A DNA stretch of 64,000 bases from Candidatus Gottesmanbacteria bacterium (lineage in GTDB: Bacteria > Patescibacteriota > Microgenomatia > UBA10105 > UBA927): the NCBI GenBank assembly GCA_023245335.1, contig JAHFKK010000001.1, forward strand, positions 1,098,053 to 1,162,052, in the 5' to 3' direction. Of the stretch, positions 3,348 to 9,258 are shown piece by piece; position 1 is the first letter of the stretch; every line of letters begins with the position of its first letter. The notes beneath the pieces were generated by a model. That model was not told the DNA's origin. It did no database searches and worked only from the letters and a program-made list of their open reading frames with translations. The translations under genes were made by a program, and so were the position numbers.

Positions 3348-3627
3348 ATGACCTTCTCATCATCGCCAATTTTTGCTCTCAAATCAAGTGGGAGATACGC
3401 CGCTCTTGTTTCTCATCGTCAATTTTGCTATAGTACCCCTTACCACAGTTCGTCTGTGGGAGAAACGGGAAAGTTTCGAACGTAAAGTACTATTGCTTCA
3501 CAATAGCCTCTTCAGTTTGAACGAATCCCCGATTAAACAAAAAGTGAATAGAAAGTAGTGAGTAGTGTATAGAATGTACATCTTGTTTTTCTATATTACC
3601 GCTTAACTATTTGCTTAATTACTAACT

Positions 3628-4056
3628 ATGCCAGCAAGAAAAGTCAAAACATTACTTAAGTTAAACCTGAAGGCGGGCGAAGCAACAGCAGCGCCTCCCG
3701 TAGGACCGGCACTCGGCCAGCACGGACTCGCCATCATGGAATTCGTCAAAGCCTACAATGAACGCACGGCCAAACTCAAAGGCCAGACGATCCCGGCAGT
3801 CATTACCGTATACGATGACCGCACATTTACCTTTGTCACCAAACTTCCGCCTGTGGCGGCCATGATCAAAAAAATTCTGGCTTTGGAAAAAGGCGGCGGA
3901 AAAGCGGGCCGGGAATCCGTCGGGAAATTGACCAAAGACCAAGTGAATCAGATCGCCAAAGATAAATTAGCGGACCTCAACACAGACGATGTCGCCCAGG
4001 CGGCCAAAGTGATCGCCGGCACGGCACGGTCCATGGGGATCCAGGTAGAGAAATAA
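3628..4056 (+). CDS. rplK: 50S ribosomal protein L11
   Basis: 142 aa. Conserved L11 N-terminal block (KLQ..AG.A...PPVGPALGQ.G..IM.F.K.FN). Confidence 0.95.
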   Translation: MPARKVKTLLKLNLKAGEATAAPPVGPALGQHGLAIMEFVKAYNERTAKLKGQTIPAVITVYDDRTFTFVTKLPPVAAMIKKILALEKGGGKAGRESVGKLTKDQVNQIAKDKLADLNTDDVAQAAKVIAGTARSMGIQVEK

Positions 4057-5399: not shown

Positions 5400-5927
5400 T
5401 TGGAGGTATATATGCCAACACAGAGGAAGATCGATACGGTAAATAATCTGACGGAAAAACTCGGCAAAGCGAAAGTCGTCGTTCTTGCCGACTACCGGGG
5501 CCTCAAACATAAACAGCTGGAGGAACTTCGAAAAACACTCAAAAAAGACCAGGGGGAATTCATTGTCGCCAAAAATAGGCTCGTCAAACGCGCACTCGGT
5601 GATAAAGCCGCAAGCGTCGAAACCTCCCTTTCCGAATCTACGGCTGTTCTTTTCGCGTATGCCGACGAAGTAGCACCTCTTAAAAACTTATTGAAGTTTT
5701 TCAAAACCGCGGGCTTGGGGAAAACTAAAGTCGGATTCATGGGGAGTACGGTCATGACCGAGGCAGACGTGACGAAACTCGCTTCCCTTCCGACACGGGA
5801 GATACTCCTAGGTAAGCTCGTGGCCCAATTAAACGCTCCGATTCAGGGATTACATCACGGATTACAGTGGAACATAAACAAACTGGTCTGGGTGCTTAGT
5901 TCTATAAAGGAGAAAAAGACAGCATAA
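5400..5927 (+). CDS. rplJ: 50S ribosomal protein L10
   Basis: 175 aa. L10 signature (VVLADYRGL..QL.ELRK.L......VAKN.L...AL). TTG start per ORF track; an ATG at 5412 is alternative. Confidence 0.9.
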   Translation: MEVYMPTQRKIDTVNNLTEKLGKAKVVVLADYRGLKHKQLEELRKTLKKDQGEFIVAKNRLVKRALGDKAASVETSLSESTAVLFAYADEVAPLKNLLKFFKTAGLGKTKVGFMGSTVMTEADVTKLASLPTREILLGKLVAQLNAPIQGLHHGLQWNINKLVWVLSSIKEKKTA

Positions 5928-5937
5928 TACATATCTT

Positions 5938-6012
5938 GCCCTCCTTCGCATAAAGCTACGGAGGGCCTAAGAAACGCTAGACTCATTAACATTCATTACG
6001 CGTTTCTAAGGG
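5938..6012 (+). promoter_or_regulatory. Two consecutive hairpins in rplL 5' UTR (GCCCTCC...GGAGGGC and CCTAAGAAACGC...GCGTTTCTAAGG), the second overlapping the RBS
   Basis: Read directly. First stem is 5938..5966. The second 12-bp stem, 5967..5978 with 6001..6012, includes part of AAGGGAGG just upstream of the rplL start. Confidence 0.35.
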
Positions 6013-6014
6013 AG

Positions 6015-6413
6015 GTGACACAAACAATGGCAAAATTATCGAAAAGCGAAATCATGTCAGCCGTCGAGGAAATGACCGTATTGGAGCTTGCTGACCTCGT
6101 CAAAGCATTAGAAGACAAGTTTGGTGTCACCGCAGCCCCCGTGGCTGTAGCTGGAGCCGCTCCAGCCGCCGCGGACAGTGGTGAACCCAAAGAGGAACAG
6201 ACAGTATGGAACGTCGTACTCGCAAACTCAGGTACGAATAAAATCGGAGTCATTAAGGCAGTCCGAGAAATCGTGCCCACGTTGGGACTCCAAGAAGCGA
6301 AGACTCTCGTTGAATCCGCTCCGAAAGATGTCGTGACAGGAGTGAACAAATCCGCAGCCGAAGAAGCCAAGAAAAAGCTTGAGGCCGCAGGAGCTAAGGT
6401 TGAGCTGAAGTAA
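6015..6413 (+). CDS. rplL: 50S ribosomal protein L7/L12
   Basis: 132 aa. N-terminal dimerisation helix, Ala/Pro hinge, C-terminal domain (GVIKAVRE...[32 protein letters not shown]). Printed numbering suggests the ORF may be 6016..6414; track coordinates are used. Confidence 0.9.
6373..6413 (+). repeat. Direct repeat copy 1 (last 13 codons of rplL plus stop)
   Basis: AAAAAGCTTGAGGCCGCAGGAGCTAAGGTTGAGCTGAAGTAA recurs perfectly about 148 bp downstream. Confidence 0.85.
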
Positions 6414-6436
6414 ATAAAAAAACTTGTGAAGAAGCT

Positions 6437-6510
6437 CCGTGGCAGTTTCCGAATCTTTGAGGAAATACTGCCACGGATCCTATACTAAACCGCCGCAAGG
6501 CGGTTTTAGT
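6437..6510 (+). terminator. Two stem-loops downstream of rplL; the second is GC-rich and T-flanked (AAACCGCC-GCAA-GGCGGTTTT)
   Basis: CCGTGGCAGT...ACTGCCACGG (10-bp stem, 18-nt loop) then AAACCGCCGCAAGGCGGTTTTAGTAT. An A-run upstream and a T-run downstream indicate a possible bidirectional terminator. Confidence 0.45.
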
Positions 6511-6520
6511 ATGGGACAAA

Positions 6521-6561
6521 AAAAGCTTGAGGCCGCAGGAGCTAAGGTTGAGCTGAAGTAA
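6521..6561 (+). repeat. Direct repeat copy 2 (non-coding duplicate of rplL 3' end)
   Basis: Identical 41-42 bp to 6373..6413; located after the rplL terminator hairpins. Confidence 0.85.
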
Positions 6562-6690
6562 CAGTCTTCCGTCATCCCGAGCGAAGTCGAGGGATCCCAT
6601 TGGGATTGCCACGTCACTTCGCTCCTCGCAATGACACTTACAAAAAATCCCGTCCGCCTCTGGCGGAGGGGATTTTTTGTAGCAGTTTGA
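6562..6690. repeat. Small imperfect palindromic intergenic element (GTCATCCCGAGCGAAGTCGAGGGATCC ... GGGATTGCCACGTCACTTCGCTCCTCGCAATGAC) followed by an A/T-flanked hairpin
   Basis: Imperfect inverted halves with a CGAGCGAAG(T)CGAGGGATC core. This resembles the short palindromic repeat units that often yield spurious small ORFs. A second hairpin, AAAATCCCGTCCGCC-TCTG-GCGGAGGGGATTTT, follows. Confidence 0.5.
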
Positions 6691-6723
6691 CAAGATTGAC
6701 ACTTTCCTGCCACACTTACCACA

Positions 6724-7389
6724 GTGAGCAAGTTTCTCTGGATCTTATTCCTCATGATTGTTCTCGCCGCCCTTAGCGTTATCGGTTATCTAGGGTATAC
6801 CTACAGTGCAAAGTACCTTAGTCCCCCGGCAGCAACGTCTTTTGTCTTCCCGACAAGGAATCCAACGACAATGCCCACCGGACCGCCCAAAAGCACACCA
6901 ACCACCGGACCGCCCAAAACCGTCACCGCCGGTCTTAATCATGCTAGCGGAAGCGCATTCCCCAAATACACCATCCAGGTACCTACAAGCTGGACCGTCG
7001 ATCACAAAAGTACGCCTTCACCTCCTACGGATACACTCACTATCACACAGACTGATTATCAGGTAAAAATTTTCCAGGGAGCTCTGGGTAAAGGCCTACC
7101 ATGCCTCTACCCCGGTGATCCTGATGTATCCGGCTTGAGCTCCCGGTTTACTTCCTATTTCCAGCTCAGCGGACAGGCTGGAATCACGTACCGAGGCGGG
7201 ATAGCAGTCGGAACCACGGGGACGGTAGCGACCCAAAAACTCTACAGCGTATGCATGAAAGACGCAAAAAGCAAATTATACGGCCAGCCCACCATGTTCG
7301 GACAGATTTCCTTAAGTACTCCAATTGCAATCGACACGAATATGCAAAATCAAATGGGTGCCATGATTTCCTCGCTGAAGACACCCTGA
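6724..7389 (+). CDS. Membrane-anchored secreted protein, paralog A (N-terminal TM, Pro/Thr linker, conserved C-terminal domain)
   Basis: 221 aa. TM (FLWILFLMIVLAALSVIGYLGY), PT-rich linker, then a domain shared with the next gene (TVTAGLNH..G..FP.YTI.VP..WTV.H......P.DTLT.T...YQ.KI.Q.A.G...CLYPGDPD). Confidence 0.5.
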   Translation: MSKFLWILFLMIVLAALSVIGYLGYTYSAKYLSPPAATSFVFPTRNPTTMPTGPPKSTPTTGPPKTVTAGLNHASGSAFPKYTIQVPTSWTVDHKSTPSPPTDTLTITQTDYQVKIFQGALGKGLPCLYPGDPDVSGLSSRFTSYFQLSGQAGITYRGGIAVGTTGTVATQKLYSVCMKDAKSKLYGQPTMFGQISLSTPIAIDTNMQNQMGAMISSLKTP

Positions 7390-7390
7390 T

Positions 7391-8080
7391 TTGACAAAAG
7401 AATCTGATGCTGTGACAATTCTTACAATGGATAAATTCTTTACGGCATTCGGGAAAATTATTCTTATTTTGCTCGTGGTCGGAGGCGTAGGATACGCGAC
7501 GTATACATATAGTAAAATCTCCGTTACCCAAACGCCGCAAACCAACCAGGGAGAAACTACTACTGTCCCGTCAACGAACCCGGTCATACCCACTCCTACG
7601 CCACAGCCATTACAGACTGTTACAGCGGGACTTAATCACTCAGGAGGCATCTCTTTCCCCGGCTATACGATATTAGTGCCCGCGGGATGGACGGTAAACC
7701 ACCAAGGCACATCCGGTGCTTCGCCTTCCGATACGCTCACGCTTACAAACAGCGGCTACCAGATAAAAATATATCAGGCGGCGACCGGCGGCGCGCCGTG
7801 TTTATATCCGGGTGATCCCGATCAGGAAGGCCCAAGCAGCCGATTCACATCGTTTATCGAATTCATGGGCTCCAACAATAACACGTTCCGTCGAAGTTCT
7901 TCATCTAATTCTACGGAGGCATCTACGGGATATACCTTATGTATGAAAGGCAACGGCAATACGACGTTTGGGCAACCGACCGGGTTCGGCCATATTTCCT
8001 ATACTGCGCCTTCCAATAATCCCGACGAATCGGTCCTTTCCCGAATGGACGTCATGATCGCTTCCTTACATGCACAATAG
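7391..8080 (+). CDS. Membrane-anchored secreted protein, paralog B (tandem duplicate of 6724..7389)
   Basis: 229 aa; same architecture and about 50% identity over the C-terminal domain to the upstream gene. Start 2 nt after its stop. Confidence 0.5.
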   Translation: MTKESDAVTILTMDKFFTAFGKIILILLVVGGVGYATYTYSKISVTQTPQTNQGETTTVPSTNPVIPTPTPQPLQTVTAGLNHSGGISFPGYTILVPAGWTVNHQGTSGASPSDTLTLTNSGYQIKIYQAATGGAPCLYPGDPDQEGPSSRFTSFIEFMGSNNNTFRRSSSSNSTEASTGYTLCMKGNGNTTFGQPTGFGHISYTAPSNNPDESVLSRMDVMIASLHAQ

Positions 8081-8097
8081 CAAATCGGCCGATAGAA

Positions 8098-8832
8098 TTA
8101 TTTCCACGACCCCAGCCACGTGAGTGTGGGAATCTGCAGGTGAACATCATTCATGAAAAGATTGCGGACCTTCGTGATCACTTCGGGATCGTATGCGGTA
8201 CCGCTCCCCTTCGCCACTTCCTCCATGGCTTCCTTAAGCGTAAATGACCGGTCGTGGTAGCTACGTGGTTCACACCGACTCACGACCTGATCTATGACCG
8301 CTGCCAGCCGAACGACGGGAGACAGCATATCGCCGATGAGGTGGTTGGGGTTACCGGTTCCGTCAAGCTTCTCGTGGTGCCGGGTGACTATCTCGTACAT
8401 GACATTCGGCAATGTCTCACCGGAAATATATTCGTAGCGCTTAAGAAGAGTGACGGCTGTCGTGACATGGTTCTGAAGCGCTGCAAGCTCGGGTGCCGTC
8501 AAATCGGTACGTTTCCGATGCCAGATAGTTGGGTCGGGTGATACTTCTGATTTTCCTATATCGTGAACCGCATATCCGAAAAGGATATCTTCTAACTTCA
8601 CATCTTTGGGGAGGTCGTTGGGATAATGTATATAGTAAAGAGCACTAATCGCGGCTTCGTCTTTTCCATGTTGAAACCAGCGTTCCCGACTATTATCCTG
8701 CAGTCCTCCATCATGGGACCAAATCGGTGCGCGAAGAAGATTGCCGACCCGCGTATCAATCCGGGCCATCATCGGAGCGATTGTGCGATCCCAATGATCC
8801 GGAGAAAAACCGATACGTTCTTTCGTCATCAT
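8098..8832 (-). CDS. HD-GYP-type metal-dependent phosphohydrolase domain protein
   Basis: 244 aa. HDIGK motif and HHEKLDGTGNP (HD-GYP signature HHExxDGxGYP with N for Y). Confidence 0.6.
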   Translation of the reverse strand: MMTKERIGFSPDHWDRTIAPMMARIDTRVGNLLRAPIWSHDGGLQDNSRERWFQHGKDEAAISALYYIHYPNDLPKDVKLEDILFGYAVHDIGKSEVSPDPTIWHRKRTDLTAPELAALQNHVTTAVTLLKRYEYISGETLPNVMYEIVTRHHEKLDGTGNPNHLIGDMLSPVVRLAAVIDQVVSRCEPRSYHDRSFTLKEAMEEVAKGSGTAYDPEVITKVRNLFMNDVHLQIPTLTWLGSWK

Positions 8833-9000
8833 GAATAATGCATTATATCAGAAAATATTCTCACCGCTTATTAGGACACGTCGTACATTTATTTCCCGCA
8901 TGAACAAATTATCCACTTTTTATATTTATACATTTCATTGTGCGACTCCCTATTGACAAGGTTTGATCGAGGATGTACGTTTATGATCACAAAAGATAAC

Positions 9001-9031
9001 GTCCCTCCCTCGCTTAAGCTACGGAGGGCAC
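9001..9031 (+). promoter_or_regulatory. Hairpin CCCTCC-CTCGCTTAAGCTAC-GGAGGG in 5' UTR; second copy of the rplL-upstream hairpin
   Basis: Near-identical stem and loop to 5938..5966 (loop TTCGCATAAAGCTAC vs CTCGCTTAAGCTAC). Confidence 0.35.
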
Positions 9032-9057
9032 AGTCCCAGCCCAAAGAAAGGAAGTAT

Positions 9058-9258
9058 ATGGCACTAGGTGATGAATGGCCCGATTTACTCACTGTCCGCG
9101 AGGTAGCAAAAATACTGCGGGTCTCCCCGCTTACGATCAAACGGTGGGGTAAACGCGGCAAGTTGCCCGCTATCCGCATCAACTCAAGAGGCGACAGACG
9201 GTACAAAAAAGAAGCAGTACTTTGGCTTCTGGGACAACAGCAAAAGGGGTCAGTTTAG
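9058..9258 (+). CDS. Small HTH DNA-binding protein (excisionase/MerR-like HTH_17 type)
   Basis: LTVREVAKILRVSPLTIKRWGKRGKLPAIRINSRGDRRY. Preferred start is ATG 9058 with upstream GGAAG RBS; the track ORF begins at 8938 and its N-terminal part covers a hairpin element. Confidence 0.5.
   Translation: MALGDEWPDLLTVREVAKILRVSPLTIKRWGKRGKLPAIRINSRGDRRYKKEAVLWLLGQQQKGSV

Follow-up and report, generated by a model that had tools for sequence, protein, structure and literature searches.

Why do two 5' untranslated regions (UTRs) of one genome carry nearly the same hairpin, one in front of rplL and the other in front of a small helix-turn-helix (HTH) gene? The question is raised by a 64 kb stretch of the genome of Candidatus Gottesmanbacteria, a member of the candidate phyla radiation (CPR), read on its + strand and referred to here as the window. 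A first-pass annotation had seen in the two hairpins either a shared cis-acting operator or a short mobile hairpin. We consider it likely that both, called copies A and B below, are solo copies of a widespread interspersed hairpin repeat resembling the repetitive extragenic palindromic (REP) sequences, and that any effect on rplL or HTH expression is incidental. The gene order is rplK-rplA-(small open reading frame, ORF)-rplJ-rplL; then come two paralogues encoding membrane-anchored proteins, a minus-strand HD-domain gene and the 66-aa HTH_17/MerR gene. The features needed at this point are as follows.

5412..5927, + strand: rplJ (L10; Pfam Ribosomal_L10), upstream of copy A
5938..5966, + strand: copy A, G-CCCTCC-TTC-GC-ATAAA-GC-TAC-GGAGGG-C, in the spacer between rplJ and rplL, its 3' end 61 nt upstream of the rplL ATG (6027)
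6027..6413, + strand: rplL (L7/L12; Pfam Ribosomal_L12, L12_N), downstream of copy A
9003..9028, + strand: copy B, CCCTCC-CTC-GC-TTAA-GC-TAC-GGAGGG, in the HTH 5' UTR, its 3' end 30 nt upstream of ATG 9058
9058..9258, + strand: HTH gene of the HTH_17/MerR type (excisionase family; Pfam), 66 aa, 3' of copy B; the same 66-aa product is called on the close relative L001 (L numbers denote the loci compared)

The pattern CCCTCC-N8-24-GGAGGG matches the window exactly twice, at 5939-5965 and 9003-9028, both times on the + strand, whereas shuffled windows contain 0.06 matches on average and none of 100 shuffles reaches two. Copies A and B have the 14-mer AAGCTACGGAGGGC in common, which is found nowhere else in the window, and a relaxed family scan of the 64 kb yields no third copy. 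Folded alone, copy A is predicted to form a stem-loop of -15.8 kcal/mol with 7 bp, including G5938-C5966, and copy B one of -13.5 kcal/mol. The presence of two look-alike hairpins, as first annotated, is therefore confirmed. The extent given to copy B (9001..9031) stands as a hairpin but not as a longer stem, since only 6 bp form and the GT...AC extension needs a bulged C.

A hairpin family in at least 12 phyla

A scan of one genome per species (596 Gb) with the pattern CCCTCCNNCGCN{4,6}GCTACGGAGGG, which has 20 specified bases, finds at least 120 loci where about three are expected by chance. The earlier view that the likeness is not accidental thus holds outside the window as well as in the shuffles, and further copies are present in other genomes. 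The loci span at least 12 phyla: Patescibacteria, Verrucomicrobiota and other groups of the Planctomycetes-Verrucomicrobia-Chlamydiae (PVC) assemblage, Planctomycetota, Bacteroidota and Nitrospirota are represented, as are Pseudomonadota (Alpha- and Betaproteobacteria), Desulfobacterota, Omnitrophota, Acidobacteriota, Chloroflexota and Actinomycetota. Several other genomes gave two to three contigs each among the matches listed. Viral contigs hold only 18 family matches, and BLAST of the consensus against 72,556 plasmids of cultured bacteria returns chance-level partial matches only. The suggested Rfam comparison, made with the window and with hairpin arrays at the gathering cut-off and at E<=10, gives no relevant match. 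Full-text literature searches for DNA and peptide strings of the family retrieve unrelated primer matches or nothing, and searches by concept lead to the REP literature and not to the family itself.

The consensus is 5'-YCCNCC-TNC-GC-YNAR-GC-TWC-GGNGGR-(CARGC)-3', in a unit of 26-32 nt whose arms are spaced 14 to 18 nt or more apart. The flanks are unrelated: among 135 distinct flank pairs, conservation is limited to positions -1 and +1..+5, with a purine at -1 in 75%, a pyrimidine at +1 in 97% and a weak ANGC at +2..+5. To guard against circularity, the stem was assessed in matches anchored on the interior only (T.CGC-N3-8-GCT[AT]C), with CCCTCC/GGAGGG stems excluded. The hexamers flanking this interior form 6/6 Watson-Crick pairs in 27 of 243 cases and 5/6 pairs in a further 21, against 0 and 2 in a shifted control. 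Sixteen or more distinct stems are represented, among them CCCGCC, TCCGCC, TCTGCC, CCATCC, CCAGCC, ATCAAC and AGAGCC. The apical tetraloops are CAAG (50), TAAA (26), TGAA (15) and CGAG (10); their first and last bases pair with a single exception, and the Y-R apical pair therefore covaries. The family fold is [6-bp variable stem]-TNC-GC-[YNAR or longer]-GC-TWC-[stem']: covarying bases form the outer stem and the apical pair, and the interior is conserved.

Read on the reverse strand, the same unit has a 3x3 internal loop GWA/GNA with two G.A mismatches and a CUUG, UUUA, UUCA or CUCG loop, and this hairpin is the more stable one (-19.0 vs -15.8 kcal/mol). The CUUG tetraloop with its internal C-G pair is a known RNA motif.

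Copies elsewhere lie in varied contexts. By crude ORF calls on the matches listed, about 60% are intergenic and about 37% lie inside ORFs, long ones included. In-frame coding copies appear in L093 as tandem EPSLTEATEG repeats, and the coding copy of L036 lies in a gene that ends ...PSSAKATEGKEEKK. In five relatives of the window (L001, at 21-46, L127, L131, L144 and L153) a copy occupies the codons of the rplL hinge, PAVA(L/S)AQAG; here the mRNA carries the G.A version, and covariation of the loop pair entails an amino-acid change. We note also that L125 has two copies (2239-2305 and 3611-3677) with the same left and right flanks and an interior that is inverted between them, which suggests either that the loop flips or that the same target accepts insertions in both orientations. 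Clustering of the neighbouring ORFs of at least 110 aa reveals no enriched family, the largest cluster covering 9 of 138 loci, and HTH genes are not enriched near family copies in that clustering.

The two copies do not have the properties of other common palindromic features. The window copies are 3 kb apart and clusters elsewhere are irregular, unlike the arrays of clustered regularly interspaced short palindromic repeats (CRISPR). Intrinsic terminators are equally poor matches, as the 3' flanks (CCTAAG and CACAGT in the window, YANGC in the family) have no U tract and a terminator scan lists neither copy. A miniature inverted-repeat transposable element (MITE) would have the terminal inverted repeats of a parent insertion sequence and a target-site duplication, whereas the unit consists of one hairpin and neither the window copies nor the flank profiles show a duplicated flank. 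Further candidates, namely preQ1-I, K-turn, loop-E, CsrA, ops/RfaH, KOPS and mimicry of the 16S anti-Shine-Dalgarno sequence, were rejected, none of them fitting the conserved positions or the contexts or drawing support from a tool.

The two sites in related genomes

Comparison of the two sites with those of relatives involves three additional features.

8953..8981, + strand: promoter-like element TTGACA(8953-8958)-17-TACGTT(8976-8981), upstream of the HTH gene, by sequence consensus
5966..6011, + strand: P2 hairpin, CCUAAGAAACGC...GCGUUUCUAAGG, the minimum free energy fold; it adjoins the rplL Shine-Dalgarno (SD) sequence GGGAGG (6010-6015) and is not part of the repeat, being the immediate neighbour of copy A
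L137 5870-5940, also in L128, L136, L144, L129 and L145: P1 hairpin, with compensatory pairs, precisely in the place of copy A

ATG 9058 is the start codon of the HTH gene, a position given by the gene caller on L001, by the 62-67 aa members of its cluster and by similarity among relatives beginning at this ATG. The alternative start at 8938, which would make copy B coding, is thereby discarded; copy B therefore lies in the 5' UTR and not in coding sequence, about 30 nt from the start as first annotated. The TTGACA-17-TAC(T/G)GT promoter-like element is conserved in more than 20 relatives, and from its consensus copy B would be located approximately 13-40 nt downstream of the transcription start and thus inside the transcript. 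The hairpin is absent from the HTH 5' UTRs of L001, L135, L130, L132 and L149, whose HTH proteins are 100% (L001) or 92-97% identical to that of the window. The distance from 'gataa' to the ATG is 33 nt in L001 and 58 nt in the window, and relative to these five loci the window UTR has a net gain of 25-32 nt exactly at copy B, the extra stretch reading GATAACG[TCCCTCC...GGAGGGCACAG]TCCCAGCCCA. Other relatives hold unrelated hairpins in the HTH 5' UTR.

Two observations concern the HTH locus itself. Its protein is 87-100% identical in relatives whose L12 proteins are only 65-88% identical, the gene usually standing right after rplL, and at this locus there is a DnaA-box-like TTATCCAC(A/T) upstream, while CCUGCYCA is conserved immediately 5' of the SD (8909-8917 and 9036-9044 in the window).

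At rplL, three further assemblies of this strain have copy A unchanged. Among 37 metagenomic loci whose rplJ-rplL spacer was read, 36 begin at a credible rplL ATG, and the copy A hairpin is missing from all 36. In its place there is P1 in six relatives, a short GC hairpin in one (L142), and other repeats or a minimal spacer in the remainder. P1 is a long hairpin in which 12 of 21 pairs are compensatory and the apical loop UAUUC is conserved. P2 is kept in the sequences of eight relatives, with compensatory changes in 7 of its 15 pairs, and is present in every relative bearing P1 or the GC hairpin; the window retains P2 only. A basal GCCCTCC...GGGC stem is common to copy A and the P1 of L137. 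The possibility that P1 belongs to the same family with an insert in the loop was rejected, as its interior is fully paired and lacks TNCGC...GCTWC in five of the six sequences. Neither P1, P2 nor the hairpin has an Rfam match, and the P1+P2 arrangement in the rplJ-rplL spacer of this Gottesmanbacteria subclade is a structured element that is apparently undescribed. The first-pass annotation had also described a second stem at rplL that sequesters the SD. That stem is P2, and covariation shows it to be real, but it only adjoins the SD and overlaps at most its first two G residues, so that sequestration is not borne out.

Both window copies are lineage-specific: copy B is a net gain in its UTR, and copy A stands where relatives differ. 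Both UTRs collect many different hairpins in the Gottesmanbacteria clade, and it is there that the copies were gained. The lack of further copies or of conservation had been named as grounds for giving up the initial interpretation; further copies exist in other genomes, and the hairpin is conserved at neither site. It is the mobile-hairpin alternative that is supported: the family is large and interspersed, its flanks are unrelated, its insertions are polymorphic and some copies lie within genes.

Several other features are seen close to rplL. A perfect 42-nt direct duplication of its 3' end, including the stop codon (6372-6413 and 6520-6561), flanks a 106-nt insert (6414-6519) that holds two hairpins and is missing from L001; the arrangement resembles a small insertion by which the end of the gene was duplicated or brought along. 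A second widespread palindromic repeat, gtcatcccgagcgaagtcgagggatc...cgctcctcgcaatgac, which translates as ...VIARSE..., follows rplL at 6575-6645, and repeats of the gtcatcccgagcgaagtcgagggatc type are also present at 305-375 of L001 and in the rplJ-rplL spacers of L132 and L138. Two adjacent paralogous genes (6724-7389 and 7391-8080), encoding N-terminally anchored proteins of about 225 aa without a Pfam match, sit between rplL and the HTH gene; L001 lacks the pair, and its HTH gene directly follows rplL.

Linkage to tRNA ends and a small GIY-YIG gene

In the matches listed (at least 120 loci), ARAGORN places the 3' end of a tRNA or transfer-messenger RNA (tmRNA) gene no more than 300 nt upstream of 23 of the 158 family members. 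As about 0.2-0.4% would be expected, the enrichment is approximately 30- to 75-fold, or about 50-fold in round terms. Seventeen of these copies are in the opposite orientation to the RNA gene and put the G.A version into the tRNA-sense strand; the other six have the same orientation and begin at or overlap the CCA (CCATCC, CCAGCC). Behind the tRNA-Arg gene of L029 (7380-7625) there are three tandem 61-nt units, each composed of the last 20 nt of the tRNA and a family hairpin.

Inspection by eye of sequences downstream of tRNAs revealed a small ORF of the GIY-YIG type just past the hairpins, which had been missed in the clustering of neighbours because its 80 aa fall below the 110-aa minimum. 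By tblastn the gene is present in 8 of the at least 120 hairpin-anchored loci listed, in each case no more than 450 nt from the hairpin, and downstream of it in 7 of the 8. The protein, about 80 aa long, belongs to a family of 872 homologues (E<=1e-5) that share 60-75% identity between phyla and retain the GIY-YIG catalytic residues. All 10 of 10 loci fetched by the protein alone have the same order of RNA gene, hairpins and ORF (independently fetched loci: L223, L233, L243, L245, L247, L248, L249, L251, L252, L253-256). A tmRNA, tRNA-Pro or tRNA-Ala gene, or an RNA-like ...CCA end, is followed by a forward hairpin starting from the CCA, by one or more reverse hairpins and by the GIY-YIG ORF, which is co-directional with the RNA gene. 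At L253 the unit of hairpin and GIY-YIG gene is in a different context and is accompanied by no more than a 3' fragment of tRNA-Ala, as co-conversion of flanks would lead one to expect.

In one lineage (L233 2316-3085, L234, L235, L237 and L241) a 160-aa IS200-like Y1_Tnp gene, scoring below the NCBIfam cut-off, lies 48 nt behind the GIY-YIG gene, and this gene pair, with hairpins and about 280 nt of upstream RNA-like sequence, recurs in at least three genomic contexts. Scans of viral contigs for the GIY-YIG gene gave no locus and then one, and its near absence there argues that the system is not phage-borne.

A plausible scenario is that the repeat spreads as a non-autonomous element, via insertion or gene conversion, its folded single strand probably being recognised by a conserved trans-acting enzyme for which the 80-aa GIY-YIG nuclease would be the best candidate. 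The strand that is read biologically would be CCCUCC-GUA-GC-CUUG-GC-GAA-GGAGGG, with two G.A mismatches and a CUUG-type loop, and relative to the rplL and HTH mRNAs the window copies would then be in the other orientation. Their presence would just give each 5' UTR a stable stem-loop (-13 to -16 kcal/mol), and any effect on mRNA stability, processing or translation would be generic rather than that of a dedicated operator. We propose more tentatively, as a possibility that we do not favour outright, that the hairpin is the cis element of an undescribed cross-phylum selfish or domesticated system whose 80-aa GIY-YIG partner is lodged after the tRNA/tmRNA CCA, and that this enzyme disperses the solo copies. 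Such a system, if real, would be the GIY-YIG equivalent of the pairing of REPs with RAYT transposases, and would explain why the interior of the hairpin is conserved across phyla.

Competing explanations and known relatives

What else could place the same hairpin in front of rplL and the HTH gene? A cis-regulatory RNA through which the two genes are expressed in concert, either as a translational operator or by binding a protein, would account for the sense-strand location of both copies in 5' UTRs, 30-61 nt from the start codons, and for the position of copy A before a conserved P2 hairpin next to the SD. This shared operator, proposed in the first-pass annotation, is very unlikely, however, because the hairpin is missing from orthologous HTH UTRs in front of 92-100% identical proteins and from 36 rplJ-rplL spacers, recurs in unrelated contexts, coding regions among them, in at least 12 phyla, has no Rfam match and touches neither SD. 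Nor does the inverted repeat behave as a duplex DNA operator for a dimeric regulator, such as the HTH_17/MerR protein autoregulating its gene and controlling rplL. The CCCTCC-N14-GGAGGG dyad does lie just downstream of the conserved HTH promoter, but promoter and gene are kept in relatives without the dyad, the arm spacing varies from 14 to 18 nt or more, and no HTH gene is enriched among the clustered neighbouring ORFs of copies elsewhere. The arms covary freely and the asymmetric interior is conserved, and a folded strand therefore fits where a dimer site does not; we regard this explanation as extremely improbable.

Chance resemblance of two unrelated GC-rich hairpins draws on nothing but the small copy number in the window, and its probability is negligible given the shuffles, the stem, loop and 3' interior common to both copies, and the at least 120 family loci against about three expected. 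Unlikely, but of a different kind, is that copy A has been co-opted as a part of the rplL leader in place of an ancestral P1, in a setting that requires a stable hairpin immediately 5' of P2, for example by stabilising or processing the rplL part of the rplJL transcript and so raising L12. Six relatives have P1 exactly there, L142 has its short GC hairpin and P2 comes next in all of them, and the basal stem shared with L137 points in the same direction. The equally close L126, L135, L134 and L147 nevertheless have neither P1, P2 nor any other spacer hairpin, which indicates that a hairpin is dispensable, and co-option leaves copy B unexplained.

The interpretation of copies A and B as REP-like repeats has its own difficulties. 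Only two copies are visible in the 64 kb read of a 1.218 Mb contig, and neither a target-site duplication nor a clean empty-site junction that would define transposition was found. No orientation bias relative to protein genes emerges from the crude ORF analysis, in which gene calls are unreliable in GC-rich loci. The window lacks a GIY-YIG gene of the 80-aa family, as does about 0.5 Mb of sequence from Gottesmanbacteria-like relatives, the sole CPR case being a distant GIY-YIG in L036 that may be a coincidental neighbour, and the association of GIY-YIG gene and hairpin is not yet separable from the joint association of both with tRNA/tmRNA ends. Copy A, moreover, may have taken on a structural function in the rplL leader, since it occupies the exact slot of the covarying P1 and has its basal stem in common with that of L137.

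In the REP sequences of Escherichia coli, a 6-bp stem is separated by a 3x3 internal loop from a short GC inner stem that is closed by a tetraloop, and the family hairpin matches this architecture. REPs and REPINs are mobilised by RAYT (Y1 HUH) transposases and fall into GTAG- and CGTC-tagged super-families, some families being specific to a species or genus and others common to distant species (Di Nocera et al. 2013, PMC3733652). Like REPs, the family consists of interspersed imperfect palindromes of 20-40 nt that are mostly intergenic and sometimes in frame within genes, and both have compensatory stem changes, G-U pairs and dimers or arrays (PMC3733652). It differs in its lack of an unpaired terminal GTAG or CGTC tag, GTAG occurring only inside the hairpin on the reverse strand, and in an interior that is conserved over at least 12 phyla and matched by none of 28 described REP families (PMC3733652); the REPs of Opitutus terrae differ from it in sequence as well (PMC3733652). 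Its recurrent neighbour is moreover a GIY-YIG gene, and no RAYT recurs among the clustered ORFs of at least 110 aa, with no scan aimed at Y1_Tnp.

Rickettsia palindromic elements (RPEs) are about 100-150 bp long. They are described as selfish DNA in protein-coding genes (PMC3733652). The present family resembles them in being a palindromic repeat inserted in frame without destroying the protein, as in L093, L036 and five rplL hinges. RPEs are not known outside Rickettsia, whereas the family has a unit of 26-32 nt and occurs in many phyla. Phage T4 SegB is described as a free-standing GIY-YIG homing endonuclease in a tRNA gene cluster (PMC2330249), and it is similar in being a small stand-alone GIY-YIG gene in or behind tRNA genes. 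SegB is encoded by a phage and carries an additional DNA-binding region, whereas the family described here comprises the 80-aa catalytic domain only, is chromosomal and always follows hairpin repeats. The L10_leader (RF00557) invites comparison because copy A lies in the rplJL operon beside the conserved structure P2; its Rfam match is upstream of rplJ in relatives, however, and not in the window, and the hairpin is not conserved orthologously.

For annotation the case is a caution, as look-alike hairpins in two CPR 5' UTRs are here repeat copies and carry no regulon signal. A 27-nt hairpin with an interior conserved from Patescibacteria to Proteobacteria is unusual, REP families usually spanning fewer phyla. 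The tight linkage of the hairpin to tRNA/tmRNA 3' ends and to a tiny, strongly conserved GIY-YIG protein points to a testable repeat-enzyme pair, which could explain many spurious ORFs of the 'SFAKATEG / SYGGQA / KLRRA' type in environmental genomes and could also account for protein insertions such as that in the L12 hinge.

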